Shown here in pieces: positions 5,396-50,335 of a DNA stretch of 64,000 nt. The notes beneath the pieces were generated by a model. The model searched no databases. It saw nothing but the letters and a program-made list of their open reading frames with translations, and was not told the DNA's origin. This DNA is from Mesotaenium endlicherianum (Eukaryota), in contig WELA01003597.1 of assembly GCA_009602735.1 (NCBI GenBank), forward strand, positions 1-64,000, read 5' to 3'. Position numbers and translations under genes: made by a program. How positions within the stretch are numbered: position 1 is the stretch's first letter; each line of letters opens with the position of its first letter.

Positions 5396-8300
5396 TCAGT
5401 AAACTCAAACATAAGCAAGGCTAGAAGACAAAGCGTATCAATGGCTTCTCGCCTTGGATTCAGATATCTCTCAGTAAGCAGTACAAGAGAGTTGGCCTCG
5501 TTTCCAAATGCCGAACTTGAGAGCAATACCTAGCATATGAACATGGAATAACTTTATGGTTTAACAGCAAGTGCGATGGCACCGTCTACCCAGGAGTTAA
5601 CCACGTTGGCAGGACCTCGGCTATCCAAATCCACAACCATCTCCCATGATCTCGAATCGCCATCCACCTTAACGGTGTCATCTGGCCACTCATCTAGCAT
5701 ACCACATTTAGATGCATAGCTAGGCAGTTCGCTGCTGCCGGGTAAGACAGCCAGGTGACTGTCAAAGAATGTGTCAGTAAACTCAAACATAAGCAAGGCT
5801 AGAAGACAAAGCGTATCAATGGCTTCTCGCCTTGGATTCAGATATCTCTCAGTAAGCAGTACAAGAGAGTTGGCCTTGTTTCCAAATGCCGAACTTGAGA
5901 GCAATACCTAGCATATGAACATGGAATAAGTTTATGGTTTAACAGCAAGTGCGATGGCACCGTCTACCCAGGAGTTAACCACGTTGGCAGGACCTCGGCT
6001 ATCCAAATCCACAACCATCTCCCATGATCTCGAATCGCCATCCACCTTAACGGTGTCATCTGGCCACTCATCTAGCATACCACATTTAGATGCATAGCTA
6101 GGCAGTTCGCTGCTGCCGGGTAAGACAGCCAGGTGACTGTCAAAGAATGTGTCAGTAAACTCAAACATAAGCAAGGCTAGAAGACAAAGCGTATCAATGG
6201 CTTCTCGCCTTGGATTCAGATATCTCTCAGTAAGCAGTACAAGAGAGTTGGCCTTGTTTCCAAATGCCGAACTTGAGAGCAATACCTAGCATATGAACAT
6301 GGAATAAGTTTATGGTTTAACAGCAAGTGCGATGGCACCGTCTACCCAGGAGTTAACCACGTTGGCAGGACCTCGGCTATCCAAATCCACAACCATCTCC
6401 CATGATCTCGAATCGCCATCCACCTTAACGGTGTCATCTGGCCACTCATCTAGCATACCACATTTAGATGCATAGCTAGGCAGTTCGCTGCTGCCGGGTA
6501 AGACAGCCAGGTGACTGTCAAAGAATGTGTCAGTAAACTCAAACATAAGCAAGGCTAGAAGACAAAGCGTATCAATGGCTTCTCGCCTTGGATTCAGATA
6601 TCTCTCAGTAAGCAGTACAAGAGAGTTGGCCTTGTTTCCAAATGCCGAACTTGAGAGCAATACCTAGCATATGAACATGGAATAAGTTTATGGTTTAACA
6701 GCAAGTGCGATGGCACCGTCTACCCAGGAGTTAACCACGTTGGCAGGACCTCGGCTATCCAAATCCACAACCATCTCCCATGATCTCGAATCGCCATCCA
6801 CCTTAACGGTGTCATCTGGCCACTCATCTAGCATACCACATTTAGATGCATAGCTAGGCAGTTCGCTGCTGCCGGGTAAGACAGCCAGGTGACTGTCAAA
6901 GAATGTGTCAGTAAACTCAAACATAAGCAAGGCTAGAAGACAAAGCGTATCAATGGCTTCTCGCCTTGGATTCAGATATCTCTCAGTAAGCAGTACAAGA
7001 GAGTTGGCCTTGTTTCCAAATGCCGAACTTGAGAGCAATACCTAGCATATGAACATGGAATAAGTTTATGGTTTAACAGCAAGTGCGATGGCACCGTCTA
7101 CCCAGGAGTTAACCACGTTGGCAGGACCTCGGCTATCCAAATCCACAACCATCTCCCATGATCTCGAATCGCCATCCACCTTAACGGTGTCATCTGGCCA
7201 CTCATCTAGCATACCACATTTAGATGCATAGCTAGGCAGTTCGCTGCTGCCGGGTAAGACAGCCAGGTGACTGTCAAAGAATGTGTCAGTAAACTCAAAC
7301 ATAAGCAAGGCTAGAAGACAAAGCGTATCAATGGCTTCTCGCCTTGGATTCAGATATCTCTCAGTAAGCAGTACAAGAGAGTTGGCCTTGTTTCCAAATG
7401 CCGAACTTGAGAGCAATACCTAGCATATGAACATGGAATAAGTTTATGGTTTAACAGCAAGTGCGATGGCACCGTCTACCCAGGAGTTAACCACGTTGGC
7501 AGGACCTCGGCTATCCAAATCCACAACCATCTCCCATGATCTCGAATCGCCATCCACCTTAACGGTGTCATCTGGCCACTCATCTAGCATACCACATTTA
7601 GATGCATAGCTAGGCAGTTCGCTGCTGCCGGGTAAGACAGCCAGGTGACTGTCAAAGAATGTGTCAGTAAACTCAAACATAAGCAAGGCTAGAAGACAAA
7701 GCGTATCAATGGCTTCTCGCCTTGGATTCAGATATCTCTCAGTAAGCAGTACAAGAGAGTTGGCCTTGTTTCCAAATGCCGAACTTGAGAGCAATACCTA
7801 GCATATGAACATGGAATAAGTTTATGGTTTAACAGCAAGTGCGATGGCACCGTCTACCCAGGAGTTAACCACGTTGGCAGGACCTCGGCTATCCAAATCC
7901 ACAACCATCTCCCATGATCTCGAATCGCCATCCACCTTAACGGTGTCATCTGGCCACTCATCTAGCATACCACATTTAGATGCATAGCTAGGCAGTTCGC
8001 TGCTGCCGGGTAAGACAGCCAGGTGACTGTCAAAGAATGTGTCAGTAAACTCAAACATAAGCAAGGCTAGAAGACAAAGCGTATCAATGGCTTCTCGCCT
8101 TGGATTCAGATATCTCTCAGTAAGCAGTACAAGAGAGTTGGCCTTGTTTCCAAATGCCGAACTTGAGAGCAATACCTAGCATATGAACATGGAATAAGTT
8201 TATGGTTTAACAGCAAGTGCGATGGCACCGTCTACCCAGGAGTTAACCACGTTGGCAGGACCTCGGCTATCCAAATCCACAACCATCTCCCATGATCTCG

Positions 8301-8522
8301 AATCGCCATCCACCTTAACGGTGTCATCTGGCCACTCATCTAGCATACCACATTTAGATGCATAGCTAGGCAGTTCGCTGCTGCCGGGTAAGACAGCCAG
8401 GTGACTGTCAAAGAATGTGTCAGTAAACTCAAACATAAGCAAGGCTAGAAGACAAAGCGTATCAATGGCTTCTCGCCTTGGATTCAGATATCTCTCAGTA
8501 AGCAGTACAAGAGAGTTGGCCA
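5396..8522. repeat. Tandem array of 378-bp units (~8.3 copies) amplified from an internal segment of the family X LTR
   Basis: Identical ORFs recur every 378 bp (5554, 5932 ... 7822; the 8200 copy runs into the N). The unit matches LTR X sequence at ~247-661. The array ends at a single N (8523). Confidence 0.95.
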
Positions 8523-8523: not shown

Positions 8524-8616
8524 TCCACACTCAATGCTTCCCATGTTCAACCAATTCCTCATTCAACACTTAGCAGATATTTTCAAAAGCTTATCTCATC
8601 CTCAGCTTTCCTTACA
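8524..8616 (-). repeat. Repeat B2 (truncated by assembly gap)
   Basis: Matches ~10039-10131. Minus strand begins TGTAAGG. Confidence 0.85.
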
Positions 8617-9836
8617 TAGGACAAAAGTGTCTTACTTTCGCACAGGCTTCCACCCAAATTGAGCATTTACAGAATGAACAAGTTTTGTGGTTTGCAGAAA
8701 TCACGTCTAAGCAGCTTAACAGGCAATGCCAGATTCAGAGAAAATCGCCCTTCAAGGCTTTCGCTTAACTCCCACAAGTCACAGCTTACAAAACTCTGAA
8801 ACTGCACATCTATGTTGGCCTGGTCTGAGCTCTTCACTCAACATCGCGCCTTAACAGCTCTTCACTGCTCGGCTGGGCTCACTCAGTTCTTCACTGAGAG
8901 CTTTACTTGTTGAGGCTACTCTTGCTATCAGCAATTTGACAATTGAGATTTCTGAGAACTTAGAAACTAACACAGCACTCGCCATTTTAAGTGTCTCTCG
9001 CACGCTTGTGGCGTTTGACCCAAATCTGTGCTAATCTCCTAACAGATTCTATTTTGCAGCTCTCTACTTTCTACCAGCGAGACCCTCTCTTGGGAACTCC
9101 TGAGGTCTAACGTGTCTATGACACACTTAAGAAGAATTCTTCGAGCATCGGCAGAAGCGTGGCGTCTCGATTCTTCAACGGCCTTGGGAACTCCTTCTTC
9201 TTCGTGCTCCCTCTGCTTCTTCAACTTCCTTTGACAACAATGCAAGCCAGAATAAAGCAGCTTCAGGCAGGACTCGTGCCTTTCACAGGCACCACACACT
9301 ATCCTCTCTCGAGAATGCCAGTGCTTAGTCACAGTGCTGAACTTGCATGCCGTCCTTAGCAGCTCTTCCACCATTTAGGAGTTGTCATTCTGCATGCGTG
9401 CATGCATTGGGATTGTCGCGCGTGACTGCTTAGCCTTTCAGTTGATAATCATGCCTATTTGGCTGGCTGGCAGCGTTAAGAACGAGCGCTCAAGCCGTGA
9501 CTGGCCACATGCGGGTCTTGGCCGAGGTGGCACACAACGCCTCTGCAACATCCCTGCTGTACTAGGTTTAGATAGCCAATTGATCAGTACCTTTTCGTGC
9601 ACTTGCTGGTTCCCTACTCTTAGCCTTTCAACTGACTACTCTATTCAAACCCCCATCCATTCTTGGGCATGGGTTTGGCGTGTTGTGACCACTTTGACAG
9701 TGATAACAACTTTGAAATGACCGCTGACTGAGATCTCTCGGTCCTTTGGTCGGTTAGTCAACGCTGACTTCCCGTACCTGGGCAACCGTGGCTTGCGTTG
9801 CGCGTGCGACACCGTTAAGTTATAGCAGTCGCGGCA
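8617..9836 (-). repeat. Repeat A2 (1220 bp)
   Basis: Colinear with 19271-20490, with scattered substitutions. Minus start TGCCGCGAC. Confidence 0.93.
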
Positions 9837-9838
9837 GC

Positions 9839-10131
9839 TGTCGTGCCTAACAATGTCGGACCCCTGGCACGTGCGTGGTTTCTCAGCACGTGTCCCTTCG
9901 ACCTGGTTGACGTATCGGTGCGTCGCTGCACGTGGGAATCGACCGAGTTGATCATCCCTTGTACGTGTGTCGGCGGCAAACTGGTTGGGGTTTCACTCAT
10001 TCCTGGTCTTCCTGCACTTGCATCACACGGTGGGGCATCCCACACTCAATGCTTCCCATGTTCAACCAGTTCCTCATTCAACACTTCGCAGAAATTATCA
10101 AAAACTTATCTTATCCTCAGCTTCCCTTACA
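9839..10131 (-). repeat. Repeat B1 (293 bp), directly after the PPT
   Basis: Minus strand reads PPT GAAAGGGAGGGG (10143-10132), then TGTAAGGG...GGCACGACA. Homologous to 49992-50335. Confidence 0.88.
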
Positions 10132-11588
10132 CCCCTCCCTTTCAGCTGAGGCGTCCCTGCCTTTCCGCTGAAAGCCTCTATCTCCTGGCCTTGCGGCTGG
10201 GGGTTTTAGGAAGGCAGTCAGGACATTCCCACCGTCCTGCCATAATCTCTTCTTTGCCAATGCAGAAGGTGTCCAACGGGCACTACACTTATCGCAAGTT
10301 ACCATTGCTTCTTGATCATCCAGCACTTTGCAGCTGGCACAAGGTGTGGCTGGCACCAATTCCTCGGGCACAGTCTTGATCGTAGGATCAATATTAGGCA
10401 AGTGGCACAGCGAGCAATTCTGCACATGATCTCTTATGGTTTTCCCATCAGAACCTTCCAGTTCCAGCACACCATTGTCGAACGCATGTTTCACGCGTAA
10501 GATTACTGCACCTGAACTGGTGTCAATGGTGGTCTTGGTCTGGCGCTTGCGGTAGGCGAAGTCTCCTTCCTGAATTTGCGTCATTTGCAGGCGGTAGCTC
10601 TCGTCTCGCGTCCTGGCGTAACGCTGTGTGTCTCTTTTTTGTGCAATTTTCAGATTGTCCAGGGCAGCAGGCATCATGTGCTCAAATAACGCCTTGCGGC
10701 GTATCATGACTTTTAGCAGTTCCTCAGGGTTGTTCAGGTCGTTCACCTGTCCGATCTCCTGCTTGATGCTGCTGGGCACAACTGGACTTCTGCCAAACAG
10801 AATTTGATAAGGCGAGTAATTCGCCAAAGCAGCTTGCTTGCTAAATTTGTAACCCATAATTAGCCATGGTAGGGCCAGATCCCAATCACGCTTGTCATGC
10901 TCAAGGCAAAATTTGCGCAAAGCAGACTTAATGGTTTGCACCATCCGTTTTGCTAGACCATCAGCTTGTGGGTGGTCTCTGGACGTAGTGCGATGGTCAA
11001 TGAAGCATTTATCTAAGACTTTCTGAAAACAACCTTGGAACTCAGATCCCTGGTCTGTCAGCACTTCTGCTGGAGCTCCATGACGTACAATCACACCGTC
11101 GAGAAGCGCTTCCGCGGTCCCCAAGCTTTCCTTAGCAGGTAGAGATACAACCTCTATCCATTTAGAAAAATGCACTTAGAAAAATGCTCAATCATGATCA
11201 TAATGTACTTGTTACTTCGCTTGGACAGCGATAGCTCTCCTGCGAGATCACAGCTCTAGCGGTATCCTAGGCCCATGATTGGCAGAGGTTGCAGGTGTGG
11301 GTGTTGCTGTGTGAAACCAGCCTTGACGCGATCACAACTTTGGCAGGCCTTGATCACATCCTCACACTGCTGCTTCATGCCCCTCCACCAGCAAGACAGC
11401 TCCAAAAGATTGTACGTCTTCTTGACACCATAGTGTCCAATATTCTCGTGCATTTCCTGCACCAGAGCTCGCCTTTTGGTGGGTTCTGGCACCAACTTCT
11501 CTTGACCAGTTTTTTCAATCTTGAAGAGGTTATTGCGTTTCCAGCAAAACAGTTTAGCTTGATGGCTCACCTGGTCCTTTTTGTTCAC
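10117..11588 (-). pseudogene. DDE integrase with HHCC zinc finger and C-terminal PHD finger (element 1)
   Basis: Motifs MHENIGHYG..CQSC, VLTDQGSEF and HPQADGLAKRMVQTIK. PHD start CASC..MVTCDKC is frameshifted. Confidence 0.9.
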
Positions 11589-11594: not shown

Positions 11595-13219
11595 TCATTC
11601 TATGTGGACTCCTGTCTTCAGCCAATACATAGTGGCTTGATCTTTCCAGATCTCCGGACTGAACGGGGGTAGAGGCTCAGCTTCTCCTGACGCTACCATT
11701 CTAGCCATTTTGGCCAGGCAGGCTGCCAATTCTGCTGGGTTGCTCGGATCTTCGTCTTCCCGAGCTCTCGTTCTGTCGTCTGCGGATGGGTCCGGGTTCC
11801 TGCTGAGTCCATCGGCGTTGTTGTTGAGTATACCTGCTCGATGTATCACTGTCATCTGGTACTCCTGGAGCTTAAGAGCCCAGCAAGCCAATATACCAGT
11901 GAGGTCTCCATTCTTCATCAGCCAAAGTAACGGCGAGGGATCTGTGATTAGCATGAAGGGTCTTTTCAATAGATACTCTCTGAAATGTGCGACAACCCAA
12001 ACCACTGCCAGCAGCTCTCCTTCGTAGGACGAGTAATTGCTCTCCGCTTGGTTGTTAGAGCGCGAGGCATAGGCAATGACGAACTCCTCTCTAGGACTTG
12101 CGACCTGAGTGAGTACTGCGCCGATTCCCACACGACTCCAGTCAGTGTGTAGACTGAACGGCTTGGAGTAGTCGAGCGTTCGCAAAATTGGGGCTGTTAC
12201 CAGTCGCTCCTTGAGCTTGTTCATGGCCTTTTTCTGCGCCTCCGTCCACACAAAAGGTACGTCCTTTTTCAGGAGTTCTGTCGAGGGTTCAGCAATTTTG
12301 CTATAGTCCTTCACAAATTTACGATAGTATCCGCTTAGTCCTAACAGGGCTTTCAGCTTACACACATTCGCTGGTGCAAGTATCTTGTAGATGGCTTCAG
12401 TCTCTACAGCCTGAGGAGACATAGCATTGTTCCCAATCTCATGTCCTAAGTAAGGCACGTGTGCCTCAAAGAATCTGCACTTTCCAGGGTGCAACGTCAT
12501 CCGGAATTTCCCCAGGCGCTGGAACACTTGTTCCAAGTGCTCGAGGTGCTCTTCTATGGACTTGCTGAATACCACCACGTCATCAATGTAGGATTTTGCA
12601 AAATCCAGCCCCTCCAGCACTTTGTCCAAAGTCCTCTGAAAGATGGCTGGGGCATTTTTTAGCCCAAACGGCATTACCGTCCATTGCCAAAGTTCCCTTT
12701 GGGCCCAGAAAGCGGTCTTACCTTGATCTTTTATTTTCACAGGGATTTGAAGCCTTGGCGTAGATCGATGATGCTAAACACCTTCCCGGTGGTAGCAATC
12801 GCAAAGATCCGCTCTGGTGTAGGCATCACATAGCTGTCAGGTTCCGTGTGAAGATTCAGTTGTCTGTAGTCTTCACACATATAGGTGGCGGTATAATTGC
12901 CAGCCTCGTCCTTCTTGGCAATTACTACTGTAGGAGCTCCATGTACTGAGGTTGATTTCTCAATCATGCCGAGCTTGTGCAGCTCTTGGCAAGCTTTCTC
13001 CACACAGTCTCATTCGGTCTGGCTGAGCTTATGCGGCCCGAGTCTGACTGGGTTATCAGTAGTTAGTGTGATCTCACACACACTGGCAGTGGTTCTACCA
13101 ATCTCCTCCTTGGTAAAAGCAAACACCTTGCGGTGCTTCTTCAGCAGCCTTTCTACTTGTGCTCTCTGTTGGGCTGAGACCATTTTTCCAATGGTGAAGA
13201 CCTCAGCTTCCAGCTGCAT
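11595..13219 (-). pseudogene. Reverse transcriptase and RNase H (element 1)
   Basis: Motifs MCEDYRQLN, IDLRQGF, MPFGLKNAPA, YIDDV, HTDWS, YASRS, NYSSYEGELLAV and ADGLSR. Split by frameshifts. Confidence 0.95.
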
Positions 13220-15399
13220 TTCCCCAACACAGGCATCCAGTACTTGCTACTCTTTGGGTTCAGGTGGGGGCTTTCCACCCTCATCCTGACCTTCAGGCTT
13301 TTCTGCCTGATTGTTAGGAGGTGGAGTGGCAGGCTTCGTAGCTTGCTCCTCCGCTGATTTCGGCTCGGCGGCCTACTTCCTAGGCTTTTTACCTTTTCCG
13401 ATGGATTGTCGCTTCTCATGTTGAGTGGGGTATGTCGGACGTCTCCGGATGGGCTGCCTCAAGAACCTTTCTTCATCTGCAGCAGTCCAACTCGTCCCTG
13501 TTCCTCCCTCTTCACGTGGCGGGGTCGAATTTGGCAACGGCCACCCTGCTGGATCTGCTCTGGGGTCAATTGTCCAACCCCATTCGCGCTCAATAGTGGT
13601 AATGCGCGCATCGGTTGTGCCAAACTTCTCTTTGGCTGGTGGCGTAACCGTCCATGCTTGTGTCAAAGTCTGCTGTCTTTGAATCGCAGCTAGTTGTGCG
13701 TATACAGCATTTTCTGCTGTCAAGCGGCTTATGGTGCTTCTCAGCTCTACCAGTTCCCTTTCAGAAACTGCTGATGTCCTAGGGACTGAACTGTCCCTTT
13801 CCCACGTTCCAGTGGATGACGGAGACACCATGGGAATGTGAATTCCTAGTGCCATGGCTTTGCGAATCAAGCCATCTTCTCCTTCTCTCTGCAGAATCTC
13901 TAGGATAGGTTGCGGAGGTGGAGCCATGGTTCCTTTCGGAACCCCTTCTCTCTGAGTTGTTCCCCTATTTTTAAGACAACGCATCAACATCCGCTTGAAA
14001 GGTGCACTCCCTTCCCGGGCCACCTTTCTTAGTCTGCTTGCGCGACCGCGAGGATTCCCTTGTGTTGGTTCCACCATAGCGGTATAAGTAGCCACTTCCT
14101 GCGGTTGTTGTAGCTGATGGGAGGTAGCTCCTGGTGCTGGTAAATTGGCGGTTGGAGTGTTGGATGTAGGCGACCTCAGATCGTTGTATAGATCTGATAG
14201 GCTGGGCCCCTCCACTATCAAGTGATCGGTCACTTAGTCATTTGTCCTGAGCTCTTGTAGCTCCAACAGATCCAGTTCCGGAGTAGGAAAACGTAGAATT
14301 TCTGCCTGAATCTCCTTTTCATTGGTGACTGACGACAGGTCAAACCCTGGAAGGTCTGGCATTTATGCGTCATCTTCAACTGGCGTCTCCACTCCAGGTG
14401 GTGGCGACTCTTCATCATTATCTGTGTTGAGGTTTGCCAAGTTGACAATGGCTGATTGCAGCGTGCTTGATGCCTTAGCCACTTCCTTTTCCTTGTGCTG
14501 TCGAGCGTCTGCTTCCAGCAACTGCACAATGATCTGCCTCGTAATGGATTCAGTTGTTTGACTAGCTGAACCCTGCTGTTGCCCCTTAGCCTGTGGCTCT
14601 GGGCTTGTCAAGGCAGGTGTTGTGGACAATTTCTTGTCCAACTCCTCCTGGCGTTCTTCAAATATCACTTCGAGGCATATGCTCTTTGCAGACCCTCCAG
14701 AATCTCCTACTTCTGACTACTCTCTTCAGCCCATTCACCAATATTGCACTGGCGTTCTCGCCCTAATGCTTGGTTTAGAAAAGGTCCAATTTCTTCAGGC
14801 GTTGGCTCAAGAGTCTTCTTCTCAGATTCTTCTGACATGTCTTGTAACGGCGCTTGCTCTGGTGAAGACGACAGACGTTGTTGGTTAGCTTCCCAGCTTT
14901 CCTGCCAATAGTCTCCGCGCCCAGCCGCTCTCGGCCTGAGGTTGGTATCATATCCTGATCTGGCATCTTCCGGAGTCTCCTCACGTCTTGATGTCGTGGC
15001 TCCGTGAGGTGAGCTCCCAAATATCTGGCTGTGAGTGGCGTTTCTTGCAGATGATGGGGTGTCCTACCTATTGTCTTATGCAGTTGGCATAGGCGTTGCC
15101 TGCTCAGGCGCCTGGTCCCCCATGGGTGTATCCTCTCTTTTCAACGGTGCTTGTAATTCATTGGTCCGATTATTAATCCGGTCCAACAGATCCTGGCATC
15201 TTCTAAATTCAGCCACCCTAGCTTGCCTGAATGCTCTGTCTCTGGCAGGTTCCGCTGCGTCTCTTTGCACACTATATTCTTCTTGTTGCTGGTGTGCCGT
15301 CCAGATAGCTCTTTGATCAGATGTTAGCATCACATTGACTCCAATTGTTAGTGGTCTTGTCCTTGGCATAGGCTTGTCAGTGAAAGTCAGCTGCTGCCA

Positions 15400-16370
15400 T
15401 GTCATAATTGTTTCCACCAACCAAGTCATAGAGTGCTGCCCAATCATGTTGCCAAAAATCTTTGCAGCTTCATCTGACCCTACAGCATCGACTATATGCC
15501 GAGCTATGTTGTCGAGTATCCCAAGGCATTTGGCCTTCTCTACCGCATTGGGCTCTTTCCAAACGGCGTTTCTTTCATGTATGTCTTTGACCATTCCTGG
15601 TCTACCTTCTATGAAGGCTCGGGATCTTGGATATGCTGTGAAGGTTGGCGGTACTACCCTTGGCTGACCTGGTTTGTTGATGACACACTGTGGATAGGAA
15701 TCCGTCCTAGCCACTGGTCTGGTATGCACCGCCAGTGCCTTTTTCACTGTCAATGCCATTGGTGATCAACGTGTAATGTCCTCCATCTCTCTCAGAACCT
15801 CAATAGACATGCCATTGGTCCAAAATATCCTGGCCCTATGGGATAATCCTCCATGCTTGGCGTCGTTGATTAGAACATGGTGGCCCAAAGTGGAGTCGAA
15901 AATCAGCCATGGCTCTCCCGGGTTCATCTGCTTGTAATCCATTCCTGGATGCACATTCTCAATCACGAACACTGGTGGGTAGTAGTGCTGTCGTTCTCGC
16001 AGCATACTGATGATTTTACCATCCATCCCCAGTGTTGTGCTCGTGGATCACTGAATCCCCTCCGATTTCCAGCTTGAGAAAACGGTTGATAAGGAAATCC
16101 AGCAAAGATCCAGTCAATCCTGTAGCCATACAGGTGTTCAGGCTTCACATCAATAATGTTGCCTCCAGCGATGCGCTCGACATTGCTATATGCGGGCGCC
16201 ATCCCTTTATAATAATGCATTTGCCGAATCTGACTCATAACTTCTTGGAATGCTAGAAAAGCGTGGTCGTCATTGTCCACATACAGGACTTTGGCCACCT
16301 GTATTCCTCGCTGGATCAATACTTTGGTCCCAGACCCAAGTCCGGCGAATAATTCTAACACCACTACTCC
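15400..16370 (-). pseudogene. C5 DNA cytosine methyltransferase domain within the pol region (element 1)
   Basis: Motif I LELFAGLG, IV GFPYQPFSQAG..GFSDPR (catalytic Cys replaced by Tyr), VI IENV, VIII HRARIFWTN, IX-like EPNAVEKAKCLG and X FGN, in canonical order across three frames. Confidence 0.92.
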
Positions 16371-16624
16371 CCTTTTGCGAAAAGGATCTTCCATCCTGAC
16401 AATGCCTTGCGGCAGCGGCTCAACTCCAGGCATCAGATTTGCAATGGAGGTATACTGGGTAAGAGACTGGCAGCAACTCTTGCGGGCCGCGGACCCTATT
16501 ACTCACGGTTTCCAACTGCTTCATGATTTGGGGTTGCCATACCAAGGGTGTTGGCATGTTGATGCTCGTATAGCCTTCCTCTTCTTGCTTCATGATGTTG
16601 TCGCAGGCTTCTGGGTACCTGTCG

Positions 16625-17060
16625 TTAATGCAGCAGCCTAGCAGTGTAGTTTGCTTCTCCTGTGCAAACCATCTTCACAGGAAATTCTCCTGCCGGCTGC
16701 CAATCTGTTGACTGGTAAGTCACCCTCTGCTTCCGCAGATCAATGACCATACCCAAGGGAATCAGTGCTTCTGTTCCCAAGAGAACATCATGGTTCTCTG
16801 CCTCCGTCACTGTGCATTCCATGAGTAGTGACGCCTCTTCAGGTTTTGAATTTACTGTGATTTTCACAAGCTTGCGAGTAATCCCTCAAAACTTTGATAC
16901 TTGTCCTGAGGCAGTTCTCAACTAGAAAGGACTCTCTTTCAGGTCCCTTGCCGTCAATCCTAGAGCTTTCACAGCTCAATTTCCCAAAATGACTGGCTGT
17001 GCGCCTGTATTCAACAGAATGTTGGGAGCTGCCCAGTTGTTGAAGGTTAATGCACCATCC
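16625..17060 (-). pseudogene. Aspartic protease remnant (element 1)
   Basis: ILLNTGAQPV (degenerate DTGA) and HDVLLG. Confidence 0.75.
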
Positions 17061-17124: not shown

Positions 17125-19117
17125 CTATATCCAGCTGATGTCCGGCTTCTTCAACCGTGAATGGATAAGTAATATGCAAATCAGCGAGAGAAAGCAAAGG
17201 AGCATGCTGGATTCGGTGTTCCACAGGGCCTTCAGCTTCTCCAGCGAAAAACTAAATGTCTTACGCGTCCCAGGCCTGGCTTGTCGTAGCTGCGAGATCT
17301 CATTTTCATCCAGAGTGATGCGAAAAGTCTGAGGAAGCTTCCCAGCATTCCTTGGCACCAGACGGTTGTGATCTGCTTGCTTGGCAGCTGTTGCGTCCAC
17401 AGCCTTTTCAAGCATCAGCTTCTCGCCTTTGCAGACGGTCTTTTCTGCAATATCTGCATCATAGTAGACATTGGAAGCGTTTAGTTTTGCAAACTGAGCT
17501 TTCAACTCAGCTATTTCTGCACTCATAGCTTCATACTTCTGGTTACCCTTGCGGTTACCAGAGGCACCCTTTACTTTCTTTTTTTTCTTGTCTGCCTCTT
17601 TTGTGGCAGCATTTGCCCAAGGCGGTTTTAAATTTGGGTTCTTAGACCAGCACTCATCTTCTGAGTGTCCCTTCTTGCTGCAATGTGCACATATCTATGT
17701 CTTGCTAGTAGATGATTGCTTAGCATCTGGGTACGGACAATCCCTCTTTTGATGTCCTGATTTCCCGCAATTCAAACAGCTCTCTGCTGTTTCAGCAGTG
17801 TTGGCATGCTCAGCAAACTTATGGAAAGACCCACTCTTTTTCTTAAACTGAAAATTAGAGCTGTTGGCCTTAGGCGGAGAGGATTCCTCCCTCCTCTCAA
17901 GAGCCATAAGCTTCCTGGAAGCCTCTTTGTACCACGCTTTACCTTCTCTGACAGTGCGTGCTATTTCAGCTGCCTCGTCAATGTCCCAGTCAATCCCGTG
18001 CTTTGCGGGACAGATGTGGCCTGACTTCACGATCTGTTTCCTTGCCCAAGCACAATAGAAACTTGTCAGCCACTATTCTGGACTCGTATATTTTTGCCTT
18101 TTTGGCGAGGTCTACCAATCTGGATTTAACCTTCATAACTGTCTCGTTCTTCTGACGGACAAAATGCACATAACGGTGCACCTTAAGACTGCGATCCTTT
18201 GAAAATCGTGCTTCAAGCAACTTAAAGAAACGCCGTAGACAATGCTTGGGGTCCAGCTGGTCATCTCCAACCTCCATATCCTTTCGACAGCTAGCCAAGG
18301 CTTGCACATGGCTTGCCTCTGTCGTGGCGCTATCGCCTCGCTGATCATGGAGAGGTGCAGCTCTGCGTGTTACTCGTTCCTGAGCATTAGCAATCTTTTC
18401 AGACAATTCTGCACACACTTTTCGCAACTCTGCGACAAAGCCGGTATCATCGCTCTGAGTAGCAGCCCTTCGCTGACCCTCAGTGACTTCCCCCATGGCC
18501 TCTGTTAATTCTTGTGTTAGTGCAGCTAGGTCTATGCTCTCAACAGGTGCAGTTGTCACTGCTCTTCCTGAAGATAGAGCAGACATTCGGGCTTTTGCAG
18601 CCTCTTTCTGGATTTTCAAATCCCTTGCCCTTTTCTGTTCTGCAAATGCCCATTCCTGGATGAGATTTTCATCCTTCCGGAATTGGCGATATAGCAGCAG
18701 GGCATCCTTGTCCAAGTACTGAACCACGCCTATGAATGCGACAGATTGCGTATAAGAAGAATCCTTCCGAATCTTCTCAAAGAATTCTGCCCAATAGATC
18801 TCATCAAACTCTTCAAAAGTGAGACAATTTCCGCTGGTTCGTCCGCTAAAACACTTTGCAGACAGCTTGAACTTAGGATTTTCATCCATCACCGGCCATT
18901 TTGAACGGTGACCAGGACTCAGTGACTCTTCCCCACACGTCTTGCTCTTTGCCCAAATCAGGTGCAAAAGCTCATGTGCTATCCAAGTTCTTCCGCTTGC
19001 GGAGATATGGCGGGACTTGTCTCTCAACGGTTGCTCACTCCACCGGTCGTCAGTATGCTCAGACGTCTCACTTCCTTGTGGACTCTGGCTAAAATCAAAA
19101 CCTTCTACAGGCTCCAT
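17125..19117 (-). pseudogene. gag with two CCHC zinc knuckles (element 1)
   Basis: CLNCGKSGHQKRDC (~17740-17780) and CAHCSKKGHSEDEC (~17650-17695). The block FVRQKNET resembles FFRRKNET in element 2 gag. Confidence 0.82.
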
Positions 19118-19270
19118 AGAGTGGTAGTGTCATCCACTCCTCAACCGCATATACAGTTGAATTTCTCCAGGTCCCCTTCCAGGTTGAACACCGGCAGCCT
19201 TCACAGGCCTCAATCCCCAACTGACTTGAGAATTCTTGTTCACCTGAACCAATCAACAAGTTCTCAGAAG

Positions 19271-20490
19271 TAGGACAAAAGTGTCATACTTTCGCACAGG
19301 CTTCCGCCCAAGTTGAGGATTTACAGAATGAACAAGTTTTGTGGTTTGCAGAAATCACGTCTAAGCAGCTTAACAGGCAAGGCCAGATTCAGAGAAAATC
19401 GCCCTTCAAGGCTTTCGCTTAACTCCCACAAGTCACAGCTTACAAAACTCTGAACTGCACATCTATGTTGGCCTGGTCTGAGCTCTTCACTCAACATCGC
19501 GCCTTAACAGCTCTTCACTGCTCGGCTGGGCTCACTCAGTTCTTCACTGAGAGCTTTACTTGTTAAGGCTACTCTCGCTATCAGCAATTCGACAATTGAG
19601 ATTTCTGAGAACTTGGAAACTAACACGGCACTCACCATTTTAAGTGTCTCTCGCACGCTTGTGGCGTTTGACCCAAATCTGTGCAAATCTCCTAACCGAT
19701 TCTATTTTGCAGCTCTCTACTTTCTACCAGCGAGACCTTCTCTTGGGAACTCCTGAGGTCTAACGTTTCTATGATACACTTAGGAAGAAATCTTCCAGCG
19801 TCGGCAGAAGCGTGGCGTCTCGATTCTTCAATGGACTTGGGAACTCCTTCTTCTTCGTGCTCCCTCTGCTTCTTCAACTTCCTTTGACAATGATGCGAGC
19901 CAAAATAAAGCAGCTTCAGGCAGGACTCGTGCCTTTCACAGGCAGCACACATTATCCTCTCTCGAGAATGCCAGTGCTTAGTCACAGTGCTGAACTTGCA
20001 TGCCGTCCTTAGCAGCTCTTCCACCGTTTAGGAGTTGTCATTCAGCATGCATGCGTGCATTGGGATTGTCGCGCGTGACTGCTTAGCCTTTCAGCTGACA
20101 ATCATGCCTATGTGGCTGGCTGGCAGCGTTAAGAATGAGCGCTCAAGCCGTGACTGGCCACATGCGGGTCTTGGCCGAGGTGGCACACAAAGCCTCTGCA
20201 ACATCATTGCTGTACTTGGCTTAGATAGCCAATTGATCAGTACCTTTCCGAGCATTTGCTGGTTCCCTACTCTTAGCCTTTTGGCAGACTACTCTGCTCA
20301 AATCCCCATCCATCCCTGGGCGTGGGTTTGGCGTGTCGTGACCACTTTGACAGTGATAACGACTTTGAAATGACCGCTGACTGAGATCTCTCGGTCCTTT
20401 GGTCGGTTAGTCAACGCTAACTTCCCGTACCTGGGCGGCCGTGGCTTGCGCTGCGCGTGCCGCACCGTAAAGTGGATAGCAGTCGCGACA
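19271..20490 (-). repeat. Repeat A1 (5' terminus of element 1)
   Basis: Minus start TGTCGCGAC. Abuts family X LTR sequence at 20491. Confidence 0.93.
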
Positions 20491-22100: not shown

Positions 22101-22450
22101 GTGAGGATGCTAGAGATAGTGAGTCGCCACCAGCTGCCCTCGTAGCAGGTGTTATGGGTTCTGCTGAACTGGATTCACTATGCATGCGTGACAAACAAAT
22201 AAAGGAGACCATCAGCAATAAAGATCTTCAGAGAGTGCACACTCTGGATGATCTTATTTAACCTGATGTCCAATATTTCTTTGCTAAGTCAAGACAACAA
22301 TGTTGTGCATTATGAGGTCGGATGCGTCTGATTTATATAAGCAACACACAAGTGGGCAAGCAAGACTTGCTATGGTGAAAGCAAAAATGCATGCGGTCTT
22401 AGGGCCAAAAAGAAGGTTAGCTGTCAAATGTTTCAATTCCCCCCCAGCTT

Positions 22451-23870
22451 TCAGCATCCAGCTGATGAGCTGATAATACTATCGCTAGCCAACTTTGCAC
22501 AGTCACTACAGAACCAGTCGCCAACGGGAACGCGCTCCAGTGGGGAGTCGAGGCAGCCAATGTGGAAACCAAGATTGCAGTTGTCGCAGAGCAGCATCTT
22601 GGCCTCCTTGCCAGGGCTATGGCAGATCTGGCACGCCCTGTCCTTGGGCGGGCGCGCGTCGCGGAGACGAACTTGCACATCAAGGTAAGGAAGGTGGCAT
22701 GGTTCACAGTTCTTCATGTGGTCCTTGTGAAGACGACCATCTGCGGCTTCCAACTCCAGTACTCCTGACGCCAAGGCACGCTCGACGCGCACGATGATCG
22801 GCAAGCTGCTGGTGTCGAGGGTGTTCTTCGTCTGGCGTCGCAGATACACGAAGTCACCTGCGAAAAACTGCAACACCCGAGGACGATAGGCTCCTCCACA
22901 AGCCATGGCATACTTCAGCGTGTCACGGTGCTAAGCGATACTGAGGTTGTCCATGGCCATGGGCATCAGGCGCTGGAACAGTTGTGCACGCTGCCCGACA
23001 AGAGCACTCCATGTGTCGAGACTATCCAAGTCCAGGACACTCTCAGCCACGGTCCTGGCTGCGGCTGGCAGGATCGGCTGGCATCCATAAAGGAGAAAGT
23101 AGGGAGAATACGAGGTCAAGGAGGCCTGGCGATTGAACTTGTATCCCATAGCAAGCCACGGGAGTGCGTCGTCCCAGTGGGTGCTGTTGTGGGTCAGGCA
23201 ATACTTGCCCAGCCCCAGCTTGACGGTCTGCACCATGCGCTCTGCAAGGTCGTCAACCTGGGGGTGATTGCGGGAGGTGGTGCGGTGCTCAATTATGGAG
23301 CGCTCTAGCAGCTTCTGAAAGCTGCTCTGGAACTCCTTGCCCTAGTCAATCAGTACCTCAGCGCAGCCGCCAAAACGGCTCAGGACCTGATCAAGGAACG
23401 CCTGCGCGATTCCCTCACTGGCCTTATTGGGCAAGGGCACGAGCTCGATCCACAAGTGCTCAATCATCACCAAGACGTAGAGGTTGCCTCGACGGGACTT
23501 GGACAACTCCCCAGCCAAGTCCAATGACCACCTGTAGAACAGCCCCTGAATGGGCAGGGGGTTGAGGGCAACAGTGCATGCTGTGAAGCTCGAGCGCACG
23601 CGGTCGCAGAGAGTGCAGCTGCTGACGACGTCGGCCACGACCTTAGCCATGCCGTGCCACCAGTACTCGAACTGCAGTAGGCTGAGAGTGCCCTTGATAC
23701 CAAAGTGTCCAAGGGCCGGGCCTCATGAACGGTGCGCACCAGCTGGCTGCGTATAGCAGGCTCAGGGACCACCGAGAAGGAGCCGTCGGCCATCACACGC
23801 CTCAGCCGACCCTCCATGAAGACGAAATCTCGGGTGCGCTTGAGGACGCGGTCACGCTCCCTCGCGTCCA
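22451..23870 (-). pseudogene. DDE integrase with C-terminal C4HC3 PHD finger (element 2)
   Basis: CTLCDR, WSLDLAG, AEVLID, MVQTVK. PHD CQIC..MLLCDNCNLGFHIGCLDSPLERVPVGDWFCSDC. A G-rich PPT follows at ~22438-22446. Confidence 0.93.
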
Positions 23871-23873
23871 TGT

Positions 23874-25508
23874 CTAGCGCCAGCTCCTTAGTGGCGACGT
23901 ACTGCAGCAGCGCGGCAACGTCCCACACGTCCTCAGGCCCGCAATACCAACTGTCTTGCTCGCTGCTGCCGCCCACGCCAGACGCCTCGTGTTGACCACC
24001 ACCAGGTCGGGGTCGATGAGCCCCGCGGGCCTCGAATCGCCGTCCATCGTGAAGGCCAAGAAGGCTGCCGCGTGCCAGGCCACTGGCTCGTCCTCGTGAT
24101 GCCGGACCACGGTCAGATCCCTGGAGGAAGGCAGCAGATTGCGGCTGACGCCGTCGGCGTCCATGGTGGTCGAGCCGGGGCGGTGGTGCATGTCAAACGT
24201 GTACTCCTGCAGAATGAGTGCCCACCGCGCGTACTTGCCTGTAAGGCGCTCCGACGTGATGAGCCACTTAAGCGGCTGATGGTCGATGACGAGACAGAAT
24301 TGGGTGCCGTAGAGGTAGTGCCTAAAGTGCACGATAGCCCAGACCGCTGCCAGACACTCCCCCTCATAAGAGCCATAGTTGGCCTCGGCGCGATTGTTGC
24401 TGCGACTGTCGTACGCCACCACGTGCTTGCAAACGTTGTGCTCCTGCACCAGCACTGCTCCCAGCCTTGCCTGCACCCAGTCGGTGTAGAGGATAAAGGG
24501 CTTAGTGTGGTCAGGCCACCGTAGCACTAGAGTGCTCACCAACAGCTCCTTGAGCTTATCTAACGTTGCCTACTGCTCTGTCCCCCATACGTAGGCAAAC
24601 CCCTTTCGCAGCAAATCGTTGAGTGGCTTAGCGAGCTCGCTAAAGCCAGGCACAAAGCGGCAGTAGTAGTTGGCGATCCCAAGGAAGGCCCTCAGCTGTA
24701 AGATGTCGATAGGCGGCGGGATGCCTGTGATGGCCAAAATCTTGGCCAGCTGCGGTGCCAATCCGCTGGAGGAGAGGAGATGCCCGAGGTACTCCACCTC
24801 TCGGGTCCCAAAGGTGCACTTCCCTGGATGGCACTTGAGCCCAGCGGCCTCCAAGCGGTCCACGATGGCGGTAATGTGCGCCATGTGCTCCTCGAACGTC
24901 TCATTTAAGACAAGCACGTCATCAATGTAGCACCGGGCAAAGGATAGCCCTGCCAGCTCCTTATCCATGACCCGCTGGTAAGTAGCTGGAGAGTTCTTCA
25001 GCCCGAAGGGCATCACCCTCCACTCGTAGAGGCGCTGTGCCCCCCAGAACGTTGTCTTGTGCTGGTCCTTCTCCGTAATAGGTATCTGGTTGAAGCCTTG
25101 CCTCAAGTCCAGCATCAAAAACCATGTGCACGTGCCAATGTCATCGAAGATCTTGTCAGGGGTAGGCAGAGGATATCTGTTCTGCTCGGTAACCTCGTTG
25201 AGCTTATGATAGTCATCGCACATCCTCTTCTCATACCAGTTGCCTGAGGCATCCTTCTTGGCCGGCATGACCGTGGGGGCCGCGTAGGTAGAGGAGGACT
25301 CCCGAATGAGCTGGTTGTCCTCCAGCTTGCCTGTCTGCGTGCTGATCAAGACATCCGCAAAGTGACTGTAGCGGTATCGCTTTTGGAAGATGGGTACGTC
25401 GGACGTGAGGCGGAGCCTCATGGGGTCGCCAGTGTAGCGCCCCAAGTCATGCATGCCGCTGGCAAAGCAGGCACTGCGCCGGGCATCAAGCATCTCCATT
25501 AGCTGCAC
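23874..25508 (-). pseudogene. Reverse transcriptase and RNase H (element 2)
   Basis: Motifs LDLRQGF, MPFGLKNSPA, YIDDV, YTDW, NYGSYEGECLA and ADGVSR. Confidence 0.95.
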
Positions 25509-25766
25509 TGCCTGCTTCGTGGTAAGGGTCCCCCCCAGCTTCCATGTAGGGACTGCTAGAGGTGGTGCTTGCCCTGCACCTGTCGCCTCTTGTGCTACTG
25601 TTGCAAAGCTCTGCCCCCCTGCTGGCGCCGCCTGTCTGCTGGCAGAGAGCGGCTGCCCTGCACCTGCTCCTGCTGGAACCTATCCTGCGGCTGCCAGCTG
25701 ACCTGTAGGAGCTGCCTGCTGGCATGCAGGAGGAAAAAGAAGTGGGGAGCGATGCGACCCCCTAGC

Positions 25767-26350
25767 GTCGTTTGGCGTCGCAGGTACACGAAGTCACCTG
25801 CGGAAAACTGCAACACCCGAGGACGATAGGCTCCTTCACGTGTCATGGCGTACCTCAGCGTGTCAAGATGCTGAGTGATATTGAGGTTGTCCATGGCCAT
25901 GGGCATCAAGCGCTGGACTAGCTGTGCACGCTGCCCGATAAGAGCCCTCCATGTGTCGGGACTATCGAAGTCCAGAACACTCTCAGCGACGGTCCTGGCT
26001 GCGGCTGGCAGGATCGGCTGGCGTCCATGAAGGAGAAAGTAGGGAGAATGCGAGGCCAAGGGGGCCTGGCGACTGAACCTGTATCCTATCGCCAACCACG
26101 GGAGTGCGTTGTCCCAATGGGTGCTGCTGTGGATCAGGCAGTACTTGCGTAGCCCCACCTTGACGGTCTGCACCATGCGCTCTGCAAGGCCGTTAGCCAG
26201 GGGGTGATCGCGGGAGGTGGTGCGGTGGTCAATCATGGAGCGCTCTAGCAGCTTCTGGAAGCTGCCCTGGAACTCCTTCTCCTGGTGGGTCAGCACCTCA
26301 GCGCAGCCGTCAAGACGGTTAAGGATCTGATCCAGGATCGCCTGAGTGAT
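25767..26350 (-). repeat. Ectopic duplicate of the integrase core (diverged copy of ~22828-23410)
   Basis: Direct nucleotide colinearity. AEVLT..HPLANGLAERMVQTVK..GDFVYLRRQT is in frame with the MTase. Confidence 0.9.
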
Positions 26351-27225
26351 GCCATCCACCCGGGTCAAATGCGGCGGGAAGCCCATGGCGCGCTCCATTT
26401 CTATGACGCGCGGCCGCTTGTAGAGGCCAGAGGAAAGGTCAATGAGCATGCCGCGAACCGCGCTGATGTAGACGGCGCTGTCGTAGTGGCTGACGAATGT
26501 TGGCAGGGCGCGCGTGACATCACCGAGCACCTCACACTGGGCTTGCGATGGATGGGGCAAAGCTGTAACGAGCTGGGCCAGCCGTGTGACGTCGAGGATG
26601 GAGTCGACGTTGCGGGCGTGGCGTGGGTGCGCGGCGGCGAGGGCCTCCAGCGTGCCTGGCATGGCTAGGTTGGTGAAGTAGGCGCGCACGCGGTGGGTGA
26701 AGGACCCAACCTGCGCGGCGTTGATGACGGCCTCGCGTCTGAGGTAGCTGCTGCAGAGCTCAAAGTTGGCGCGAACATTGGCGCGCTCGTCGTTGCGCAC
26801 CGCCACATTCTCCAAGACCCACGCAAAGGAGTGAGGTGGCTGGCGCGCCTCAACCACTGTGAGGACGCAAAGAAGGTGCCAGAAGAGCGCCGTGCGAGGG
26901 TCACTGAGGGCACCACCGCGGCCTGCGATGGAGAAACCCGGGCACTCCCAGCCAGCAATGACGAGATCCACGGGGCCGAGGCGAGTCACGTGCTCGTCGG
27001 TGATGTCGCGGACGTCCAATGGCTAGTCGGTCTGCGCGTAGCGAAAAGCGCAAGTGAGAAATAGGTCGGGGAAGCGCTTGTGACAGAGGGCCATCTGGCG
27101 TCGGGCAACTTGCTGCGCCTTAGGTTCAGGGTCGACGTAGACGTAACGTTGGACGGGAATGCCAGCCTACAAGGTAGCCAGCAACCCAGTGGCGATGTTG
27201 GCAAACAGCTCCACCAGGACGATGC
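26350..27225 (-). pseudogene. C5 DNA cytosine methyltransferase domain, DNMT3-like motifs (element 2)
   Basis: LVELFANIA (degenerate motif I), DVRDITDEHV..LGPVDLVIAGWECPGFS (III/IV), LENV (VI), HRVRAYFTNL (VIII), EMERAMGFP (IX). Motif X is replaced by the integrase duplicate. Confidence 0.92.
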
Positions 27226-28237
27226 CGCCAGACGGCTCATCCAGCTGGTCCGTGTAGATTGGCGTTGGCGGTGGGCAAAGGCCTATAGCAAGATTGCTTG
27301 GCTCCGCCGTTGGCGGGTACGTACGGGCCACGCTGTACTGGTGAGGGGCCATGCGGAGTGCAGCGACTGCACGGTTGGCGTAGTCGCGCGTAAGAAGCAA
27401 AAGAGGTCCAGCCAGTGGCTGAGGCTGGTCGACGCGCGCGTGAGCCTGGTACTGTCGCCACCTGTCCTGAGCGTCCTGCAGGATGTGAAAGCGTAGAGGT
27501 GTCAAGCGGGACTGGGCCATGCGCACGCAGGTGAGCTGCCACCTGCGCCTAGCCTTGCGGTCCTGCGCATGAGAGGCTGCGTACGCGAGCTGGTCCATCA
27601 CAAGGCGCTGTGGCAGGTACGGGTGTGGGTCGTAGAAGGCCTGCTGGCGGTGGTGGAACGGGAGGTCCACTGGGTTGGCGCTGCCGGCGGGCTTCGTGTC
27701 GTATATGAAGTGCCGGACGCGCACTGGCTAGCAAGGCGCCAGCTGCACCTGGGCATGGGGTTGCGGGTGGAGCGGCAGCTGATCGTTTGGACGCCGGTAG
27801 CGGCGCGCCAAGTCGTCGACGGCTGCAGATCGGCGGCCAGGCCTAGAGTCGCATGCGCGGCTGCTGGTGTGGGCCACCTTTGAGGGAGGCAAGCTGCCAG
27901 GCCCGTCTCTGGCAAAGTGACTGCGAGGGAGCGCTGGCCGTCGATCGTAGAGCGCGTGGGTGGCGTACGTGGTGGACTGCGGGGCATCCTCACGACCGTC
28001 CACCTCGCAGTACGGCGGGGTGGCTGCTCGATCACGGCTGTCGCGGTAGGGTGGAGTGGCGGCTTGATCTTGGGTATTGCGGTAAGGCGGCGTGAGAGAC
28101 CGAACACGTCTGGGCGGGGGCGTGAGATTGCGCTCGCTGCGCAGACTGCGCCTGAGCTGCGGCCAGGTGACAGCTCCCAGCCTGCCGCGTAGTCCGCGTT
28201 CCGGCTCTGGACGGATGACTGAGCACACAACGGGTAC

Positions 28238-48759: not shown

Positions 48760-50335
48760 TGTCGCGACTGTTATCCACTTGACGGTGCCGCACGCGCAGC
48801 GCAAGTCACGGCCGACCAAAGGACTGAGTTATCTCAGTCAGCGGTTATGTCAAAGTCGTTATTACTGTCAAAGTGGTCACGACACGTCAAACCCCACACC
48901 CACGGATGGATGGGGATTTGGACGGAGTAGTCAGCTGAAAGGCTAGGGGCCTGGAACCAGCAATGAGCCAGCCCAACAAGTGCCAAGTAAGGTACTGATC
49001 AATCGGCAATCGAAGCCAAGTACAGCAGGGATGTTGCAGAGGCGTTGTGTGCCACCTCGGCCAAGACCCTCGAGTGACTAGCCACGGCTCAAGCGTTCAT
49101 CTCAAACGCTGCCTACCGCCAGCCACATAGGCGTAATTGCCAGCTGAAAGGCTAAGCAGTCACGCGCGACAGTCACAAGGCGTGCATGCATGCCGAGTGA
49201 CAACTTCTAAAGCTGTTTGAGGGCTGCTAGGTAAGGACGGCATGCAAGCTAGGCGCTGTGACTAAGCACTGGCATTCTCGAGAGAGGATAATGCGTGGTG
49301 CCTGCGAAAGGCACGAGTCCTGCCTGAAGCTGCCTCATTCTTGCTCGCATCGTTGTCAAGGAAGCTGAAGGAGCAGGTACGAAAGGAAAGGAGAAGAAGG
49401 AGCGCGAAGAAGAAGGAGTTCCCAAGGCCACAGAAGAGCCGAGACGCCACGCTTCTGCCGACGTTGGAAGATTTCTTCTCAAGTGTATCATAGAAAGGTT
49501 AGACCTCAGCAGTTTCTAAGAGGGGATCTCACTGGTAGAAAGTAGAGAGCTGCAGAATAGAATCTGGTAGGAGATTAGCATAGATTCGGGTCAAACACCA
49601 CAAGCGTGCGAAAGTTACTTAAAATGGTGAGTGCCGTGTTAGTTTCCAAGTTCTCAGAAGTCTCAATTGTCGAATTGCTGATAGCAAGAGTAGTATTAAC
49701 AAGTAAAGCTCTTAGTGAAGAACTGAGTGAGCCCAGCCAAGCAGTGAAGAACTGTTAAGGTGCGGTGTTGAGCGAAGAGCTCAGACCAGGCCAGCATAAA
49801 TGTGCAGTTTCAGAGTTTTGTAAGCTGTGACTTTGTGAAAGTTAAGCGAAAGCCTTGAAGGGCGAATTTCTCTGAATCTGGCATTGCCTGTGAAGCTGCT
49901 TAGACGTGATTTCTACAAACTACAAACTTGTTCATTTTGTAAACCCTCAACTTGGGCGAAAGCCTGTGTGGAAGTAAGACGCTTCTGTCTTTGTAAGGGA
50001 AACTGAGGATAAGCTAAGTTTTCGAAAATCTCTACTGAGTGTTGGTAGTGTGGAATGAGGAACTGGTTGAGCATGGAAGTTCTGAGTGTGGGATGCTTCA
50101 TCGCATGATGCAAGTGCAGGAAGATCAGGAATGGGTCAACCCCCAGCTAGTCTGCCGCCGACACACGTGCAAAGGTCGATCAACCCGGTCGATTCCCCAC
50201 GTGCAGCAACGCTCCAACCAAACGACCAGGGAATCCCCGCACGCGAGAAGGACTGCCGACACGTCGACCAAATTGAAGGCACACCTGCTGAGAAGCCACG
50301 CTCGTGCCAGCGATCCGACGCTGTTAGGCACGACG
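48760..50335 (+). mobile_element. Solo A+B terminal unit of the element 1 family with 4-bp TSD CCAA
   Basis: Starts TGTCGCGAC. The A/B junction is at 49991/49992 (TGTAAGGG). Ends GGCACGACG. CCAA at 48756-48759 and 50336-50339. Confidence 0.88.

Follow-up and report, generated by a model that had tools for sequence, protein, structure and literature searches.

The window analyzed here is the whole stretch of 64,000 nucleotides at positions 1 to 64,000 of the forward strand of contig WELA01003597.1 (assembly GCA_009602735.1), from Mesotaenium endlicherianum. It contains a retroelement on the minus strand, called element 1 below, whose parts are collected in Table 1. The gag-protease-RT-RNase H-integrase order and the DDE integrase, established by Pfam and tblastn, assign element 1 to Ty3/Gypsy. 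With respect to the ends expected in this group, a TG start and a polypurine tract are present, and the right end is lost in an assembly gap. Ordinary paired LTRs with a tRNA primer site were not found; the element has split repeats and a self-complement instead. In its own direction, it reads A1 (from 20490), coding region, B1, A2 and B2, the last running from 8616 to the gap. Membership in the DIRS/Ngaro group, which uses a tyrosine recombinase, was rejected: the integrase is of the rve/H2C2 type, and no tyrosine recombinase family was found among the scanned ORF pieces. The spacer between methyltransferase and RT gave no meaningful Pfam match, and its ORF at 13376-14233 had no Atlas match.

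Table 1. Positions of element 1 and of related features in the window.
Feature	Position	Strand	Support or remark
Repeat A1, 5' end of element 1, begins TGTCG	19271..20490	-	94.5% identity with A2
13 nt within A1, exact complement of the bases right after A1; predicted RNA 5' end and self-primer	19603..19615	-	
Primer-binding-site position, +2 to +14 past A1; pairs with 19603-19615	19257..19269	-	
gag, broken, zinc knuckle(s)	17600..19129	-	zf-CCHC E 5.6e-5; tblastn to Closterium P0039
Aspartic protease, stops present, catalytic Asp position is Asn	16763..17023	-	PF13975 E 1.6e-6
DNMT3-type C5 cytosine methyltransferase domain, dead in the element 1 copy	15409..16373	-	Profile matches
Spacer of ~2.1 kb, broken ORFs	13250..15380	-	Covered by contigs of other copies
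Reverse transcriptase and RNase H	11850..13190	-	RVT_1 1.5e-22, RT_RNaseH_2 7e-33
DDE integrase (H2C2 zinc finger, rve core)	10400..11480	-	Integrase_H2C2 1.4e-16; rve 3.5e-5
PHD-finger remnant, frameshifted	10214..10340	-	tblastn to PHD ends of P0002, P0032
Polypurine tract abutting B1	10132..10143	-	
Repeat B1, begins TGTAAGG, ends CGACA	9839..10131	-	
B1/A2 junction palindrome GACA-GC-TGTC, one mismatch in element 1; predicted integrase cut site	9833..9842		
Repeat A2	8617..9836	-	
Repeat B2, truncated by assembly gap (N at 8523)	8524..8616	-	89% identity with B1
Solo A-B copy, related subfamily, CCAA on both flanks (likely 4-bp target duplication)	48760..50335	+	
DNMT3-type domain of a separate Gypsy element (~22450-33000), distantly related; GWEC with Cys kept; two stops	26330..27232	-	

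Several other features lie in the window. The separate Gypsy element of the table (element 2) is richer in GC and carries its own DNMT3-type domain, likewise between protease and RT. Its PHD finger looks intact, and the element is rearranged, containing a duplicated integrase piece and an insertion; neither A/B repeats nor the junction palindrome was present in the 620 nt after this PHD finger. An 806-bp direct duplication (28603-29408 and 29410-30215, 99.9% identical) surrounds a single N and is likely a scaffolding artefact. An array of 378-bp units, 99% identical, occupies 5396-8521 and ends at the assembly N; it has relatives at 47413-47922 and at the start of the window, and may be a satellite or an assembly artefact. 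Two host genes were recognized. The one at 51544-54207 (+) encodes phospholipase D alpha, and the 292-aa stretch searched matches Mesen1 ME000052S08121 at 100% identity. The other, at 55325-58987 (-), was judged by eye to encode an OSCA/ERD4-like membrane protein. Ordinary Gypsy fragments without a methyltransferase match (800-2800, 34490-39650 and 43100-44140) served as CpG controls.

The earlier note had placed a C5 methyltransferase between protease and RT, and this position was confirmed, with gag and protease upstream and the spacer followed by RT downstream. The N-terminal half matched Pfam DNA_methylase (PF00145, E 7.5e-9), and the whole domain, with X at its breaks, covered positions 2-322 of a 323-position profile built from 10 related element domains, at 190 bits; the C-terminal half gave no match in Pfam or PDB. 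As the note had also claimed, motifs I, IV, VI, VIII, IX and X occur in order. On the minus strand these are I (LFAGLG, ~16355), IV (GFPYQPFSQAG, Tyr codon at 16089-16091), VI (ENV, 15960-15952) and VIII (HRARIFWTN, 15840-15814), followed by degenerate IX and X, where element 1 has K, A and G against R, E and D in 153, 161 and 157 of 167 relatives. The copy had further been described as inactivated by a Cys to Tyr change and frameshifts. The former is indeed present at the catalytic position; besides it, the domain has a single frameshift (near 16015) and a single stop (15766-15768).

By profile and fold the domain of element 1 is of the DNMT3 type, with unrearranged motifs. The PDB-profile and fold rankings were obtained on relatives and on element 2, to which the domain of element 1 is joined by profile scores. 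Against PDB sequences the family profile ranked DNMT3A first (8e-26), then DNMT3B (5e-23), DRM (4e-15) and HaeIII/HhaI (2e-10), and a structure model of the relative P0004 (pLDDT 87) found DNMT3 structures in all Foldseek matches listed. The domain of element 1 itself scored 200 bits on the profile of 21 relatives with the same domain order, 171 bits on that of 85 relatives with the other order, 33 bits on that of 30 phage enzymes, and 25 bits when the profile came from 2 prokaryote-like DNMT3 relatives. The resemblance of HRARIFWTN to DNMT3 seen previously also stands, the HR.R..W.N of motif VIII being common to DNMT3A/B. The catalytic domain of DNMT3A/B is thus the best sequence-profile and fold match, with the same motif order from I to X, whereas the element family is only ~22% identical to it and lacks the PWWP and ADD domains.

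Other copies of the family were read from contigs of DNA runs that all come from a single sample; this sample, possibly the one from which the assembly was made, is not independent. These contigs cover all 30 bins of element 1, methyltransferase included, and those running past the domain enter the same flanks on both sides. The question raised earlier, whether a family consensus would restore the catalytic PC, was answered by these copies: the codon reads Cys in all depth of run X1 (32 contigs) and in 15759 of 15828 depth units of run X3 (30 contigs). Likewise, the stop at 15766-15768 is missing from 24 contigs of X1 and 19 of X3, and the frameshift near 16015 from 4 contigs of X1 and 6 of X2. 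Since the other copies keep the domain, its Cys and the same flanks, the domain characterizes the family, and its lesions are peculiar to the copy in element 1. The domain is therefore neither without profile match nor a one-off insertion, the two outcomes that would have spoken against the earlier proposal. We regard it as nearly certain that element 1 is one dead member of a multi-copy Gypsy family of Mesotaenium in which a DNMT3-type methyltransferase lies between protease and RT.

The differences among Mesotaenium copies gave a borderline sign of selection: 16 of 39 were synonymous against an expected fraction of 0.28 (p 0.051), the 39 being the 40 sites listed minus one at the frameshift, with 2 further sites lying beyond the listing. 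The RNA runs X5 and X8 contained 104 and 303 matching reads, nearly all below 95% identity and almost none on the domain. Also, 7 contigs in each of X1 and X2 depart from element 1 exactly at 19603, where the predicted 13-nt primer ends; a related family might have the same repeat as far as the primer and another sequence beyond it.

The family extends far beyond Mesotaenium. At E<=1e-30, 530 protein clusters match its profile, the catalytic Cys is retained in 164 of 167 near-complete domains, and the domain is present in 30 of the 120 RT relatives listed (the best 120 of 292), before RT in 10 and after RNase H in 20. The first order, PR-DNMT-RT, occurs in Mesotaenium (two distant families in the window), Closterium, Marchantia and Klebsormidium nitens. 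The second, RT-RH-DNMT-INT-PHD, occurs in Pleodorina, Scenedesmus and probably Cymbomonas (for example P0058, P0284 and P0339, the last showing DNMT-INT only). Among named members the upstream order is thus that of streptophytes and the downstream order that of chlorophytes. Among 80 metagenome loci, the first order was seen in 8 and the second in 39, the other 33 being too incomplete to be assigned. The second order forms one clade in the methyltransferase trees, with a support of 99 in a quick search of 74 rows (39 of 90 downstream-type proteins included) and 68/95 in a smaller, careful tree of 31 rows, as well as in the RT tree (99). The RT of element 1 groups with those of the K. nitens elements (a clade of 45 rows, SH-aLRT 99, in a quick tree of 58 rows). 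A single capture, followed by relocation of the domain within pol, is the simplest reading of these data, although it is not proved. The domain is under purifying selection in the metagenome relatives (dN/dS 0.015-0.32 for the 12 pairs, out of 93, whose dS is <1, the pairs not being independent).

Capture of DNA methyltransferases by retrotransposons had been mentioned in the earlier note as reported for Symbiodinium and Klebsormidium, and element 1 is of the Klebsormidium kind (de Mendoza et al., 2018, PMC5890265). Like KnitGypsy-Dnmt3 of K. nitens, it has the Gypsy domain set, an intronless, unrearranged Dnmt3-type domain in the coding region and repeats in the A-coding-B-A-B layout, which the legend of Fig. 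4 in that article notes as DIRS-like. The K. nitens protein KFL_013780020 contains a zinc knuckle, a protease and the methyltransferase, and its neighbour KFL_013780010 contains RT, RNase H and integrase; both records give a 7,497-bp contig. Element 1 differs in its host, which belongs to the Zygnematophyceae, in a domain only 29% identical, in the 2.1-kb spacer and in the degenerate motifs IX and X. The accessible parts of the article present the capture as restricted to the K. nitens lineage and hold no mention of a palindrome, a self-priming complement or a circle route (PMC5890265). SymbioDIRS-Dnmt3 and SymbioLINE-Dnmt of Symbiodinium are also retrotransposons bearing a methyltransferase, and the former has the same repeat layout (PMC5890265); they are, however, a DIRS element with tyrosine recombinase and a LINE, whereas element 1 has a Gypsy-type RT and a DDE-type integrase. 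Gypsy-7a_cRei of Chlamydomonas is another green-algal Gypsy element with a PHD finger, whose left LTR is noted as incomplete, but its domain legend shows no methyltransferase (PMC9940879).

The DNMT3-Gypsy association itself is thus a discovery of 2018, found here in a new host from the algal sister group of land plants. Also, the lineage is not confined to Klebsormidium, as it includes Mesotaenium, Closterium, Marchantia, Pleodorina, Scenedesmus and Cymbomonas in two domain orders. In the open sources searched, we found no paper on such elements in Mesotaenium, Closterium, Marchantia or chlorophytes, and no description of the second domain order, the palindrome or the circle route; supplements and Repbase may hold some. 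PMC12344493 speaks of "streptophytes", and its supplementary trees may already cover part of this range. As the lineage is broad and has two orders, DNMT3 carried on transposons may have affected the methylomes of green plants over a very long period.

The repeats of element 1 suggest how their layout could arise. B1 ends with CGACA, A starts with TGTCG, and the two meet across GC. Because the polypurine tract abuts B1, B would be the start of the true LTR. The exact palindrome GACAGCTGTC is found downstream of the PHD finger in 19 of 45 loci against 0.15 expected, and these 19 loci represent 14 families, less than 70% identical, with the same 2-bp GC spacer. We predicted this 10-mer from the B1/A2 junction of the window, narrowed it once the loci had been viewed, and then counted it; in the palindrome alignment the sites were picked by motif, so that the invariant columns are so by construction. 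The exact motif did not occur in 175,595 coding bases. In the window, one copy with a single mismatch lies at the B1/A2 junction, and two other one-mismatch matches are at chance level. No palindrome within one mismatch was seen in 22 of the 45 loci, some of whose contigs are short, and a generic long-armed CA-NN-TG palindrome was not enriched (11 of 38 loci, 9.4 expected). In A1 and in the solo copy, the TGTC half of the palindrome is where repeat A begins, and the upstream repeat of L011 likewise starts exactly at TGTC. The solo A-B copy has the form expected of a recombination between A1 and A2; the target duplication CCAA is known from this one copy, whose terminal CA reads CG.

No TGG of the tRNA primer type was seen after A1. 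Bases +2 to +14 after A1 are instead the exact complement of positions 876-888 of A. All 13 primer bases are kept in the solo copy, whose A is 83% identical overall, and the pair forms in both the minimum-energy and the centroid folds. Of 20,000 resampled sequences, 63 had an 11-mer complement as close to the end of the repeat, the observed one having 13 nt. Among 12 relatives with enough sequence past the palindrome, 9 have pairs of 11-15 nt and 3 have none of at least 11 nt. The 15-nt pairs of L036/L038 and of L045 differ at 3 positions on both arms; for each, none of 100 shuffles gave such a pair. Upstream of called gag starts, which are poorly anchored, complements of at least 12 nt were found in 0 of 15 cases (1.0 expected).

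From the junction palindrome and from the 13-nt complement that stands in place of a tRNA site, we infer self-primed copying followed by insertion of an end-joined circle. The RNA would start inside A (at 19615) and prime itself on the 13 nt after A1, a step that we consider rather likely. Plus-strand synthesis, primed by the polypurine tract, would then begin where B begins; the true LTR would accordingly be B+A and the linear cDNA B-A-coding-B-A. Joining of the cDNA ends would produce an A/B junction. Finally, the DDE integrase would cut both strands of the internal GACA-GC-TGTC in a staggered manner, each time behind CA, and the opened circle would be inserted as A-coding-B-A-B with TG...CA ends and a 4-bp duplication. 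Recessed CA ends are what DDE integrases insert, as known from retroviral biochemistry. A circular intermediate gains real support from the anatomy of the repeats, and the circle route may well be the one taken, with slightly less assurance than self-priming.

Parts of this route have precedents. Tf1/sushi Gypsy elements have ordinary LTRs and a chromodomain, whereas the repeats of element 1 are split and its integrase ends in a PHD finger. They have in common an LTR-derived complement right after the 5' repeat instead of a tRNA site. In Ngaro, PAT and TOC1 elements, split repeats are explained by circle insertion, the Ngaro-type ones using a tyrosine recombinase, and DDE enzymes of IS911, IS30 and foamy virus cut abutted ends with a short spacer at circle junctions. 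Element 1 differs from these split-repeat and circle-junction systems in that its abutted ends are inherited inside a Gypsy LTR. Self-priming in elements of the Tf1/sushi type has been described (PMC2864245).

A route without any circle would account for the same layout if a longer RNA or an extra strand transfer gave a linear A-coding-B-A-B molecule, or if B1/A2 were left from an old tandem insertion. The full A-B-A-B layout is unreadable in the relatives, as metagenome contigs collapse the repeats, which leaves room for such a route. Nevertheless, the same 2-bp GC spacer in 14 families less than 70% identical rules out a one-off tandem insertion, and the polypurine tract sets the plus-strand start at B, which is not the inserted left end. 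We therefore hold a circle-free origin to be unlikely, while giving it more weight than any other alternative considered here.

With respect to the enzyme, we propose that in live copies it likely moves along with the particle and, before insertion, methylates the newly made cDNA, which would probably be the circle. As an enzyme borne on the polyprotein would meet cDNA or circle first, this would be its most likely job. Methylation of its own cDNA has been proposed by de Mendoza et al. for the known elements; the SymbioDIRS-Dnmt3 domain methylates CG in yeast, and the K. nitens domain gave no methylation there, a result that its authors call inconclusive (PMC5890265). The CpG content held no signature of self-methylation: observed/expected ratios were 0.53-0.59 in internal parts of element 1, 1.05 and 0.74 in element 2, and 0.53, 0.44 and 0.91 in the three other Gypsy fragments of the window, element 1 being no lower than two of these three enzyme-free fragments. 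The chances that the enzyme acts on its own cDNA appear evenly balanced. More speculatively, methylation might disguise the naked intermediate, or a newly inserted copy, as host DNA. Taken as a whole, the best explanation, which we consider moderately probable, is that element 1 is a dead copy of a family whose live enzyme would methylate new cDNA or circle before insertion through the circle route.

The enzyme could instead work after insertion or in trans, methylating the inserted copy, its flanks and sister copies, so that the family restrains itself and the host is spared. Such self-restraint was raised by de Mendoza et al. in their Discussion (PMC5890265). A link of the complex to chromatin is provided by the PHD finger at the integrase end, and the purifying selection in relatives fits any function. 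The decay of element 1 points in the same direction: A1 and A2 differ by a K2P distance of 0.056, mainly through transitions, in CG (17), CHG (10) and CHH (18) contexts. This C-to-T decay is, however, the pattern that host silencing would give, and K. nitens copies carry CHG and CHH marks (PMC5890265). Also, the place of the enzyme in a packaged polyprotein would favour access to cDNA. A role after insertion thus appears improbable to us.

It is also conceivable that methylation governs the cut site, marking or shielding the palindrome so that the integrase would open the right junction and spare inserted copies. There would be two palindromes per circle and one within each inserted copy; in the window and in all but one of the 19 exact-motif loci, the palindrome has a CpG directly beside it (CGACAGCTGTC), and the core CAGCTG contains symmetric CHG sites. 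Methyltransferase and split repeats moreover co-occur both in K. nitens (PMC5890265) and in element 1. The abutting C may, however, simply be part of the recognition sequence of the integrase, and we give this role of methylation a low probability, below that of a function after insertion.

Methylation of the cDNA or circle before insertion, which remains our preferred reading, can be combined with the other observations. We would then be dealing with an ancient, green-plant-wide Gypsy lineage that primes itself without tRNA, passes through an obligatory two-LTR circle and has an integrase opening this circle at the inherited palindrome GACA-GC-TGTC; DNMT3 would have been captured once, moved later within pol in chlorophytes, and would methylate the circle and perhaps choose which palindrome is cut. 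We offer this combination only tentatively, at less than even chances. If true, it would break the retroviral rule. The conserved internal palindrome would account for the DIRS-like repeats, and it predicts a Gypsy integrase whose substrate is an end-joined circle, normally a dead end. Furthermore, the palindrome circle gives the methyltransferase a defined candidate target, which can be isolated and read for methylation.

The earlier note had seen a bacterial, HhaI-type component in the motif IV region; this is not supported by profile scores, as the family profile far exceeds the phage profile for both halves of the domain (69 against 28 bits for the N-terminal half, 118 against 0.7 for the C-terminal half) and GFPCQ is a family variant, present also in KFL_013780020, with Phe at that position in 16 of 167 relatives. 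Membership among bacterial HhaI-type enzymes was rejected, the best match over the whole length not being prokaryotic (33 against 200 bits). The phylogeny suggested in that note was less decisive. The best tree (31 rows) places the domain of element 1, on a long branch, as sister to the K. nitens protein (86/85), which is also the best pairwise match of the N-terminal half (37%, 66 bits), but an AU test on the same 31 rows, which include this long branch and hold no eukaryotic host DNMT3, did not reject a grouping with phage enzymes (p 0.25). A replacement or chimera derived from a bacterial or phage HhaI-type methyltransferase is largely refuted by the scores of the two halves and by the K. 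nitens match, and is very improbable, even though the sole methyltransferase PDB matches of the N-terminal half are weak HhaI ones at motif IV (E 0.098), phage enzymes match this half at up to 50 bits, and the AU test leaves the phage grouping standing.

A word search for a longer homologue of the N-terminal half found none among 269 candidates, which is weak evidence. Viral contigs contained only ordinary phage methyltransferases, which matched mainly the N-terminal motifs (32 loci). Two metagenome contigs that are not retroelements encode stand-alone methyltransferases of ~320 aa (L074, 5276-6046; L080, 9508-9981) with DNMT3-like motifs (AHRRRNYWTN) and 97 bits on the element profile; these enzymes are probably prokaryotic or viral relatives of DNMT3.
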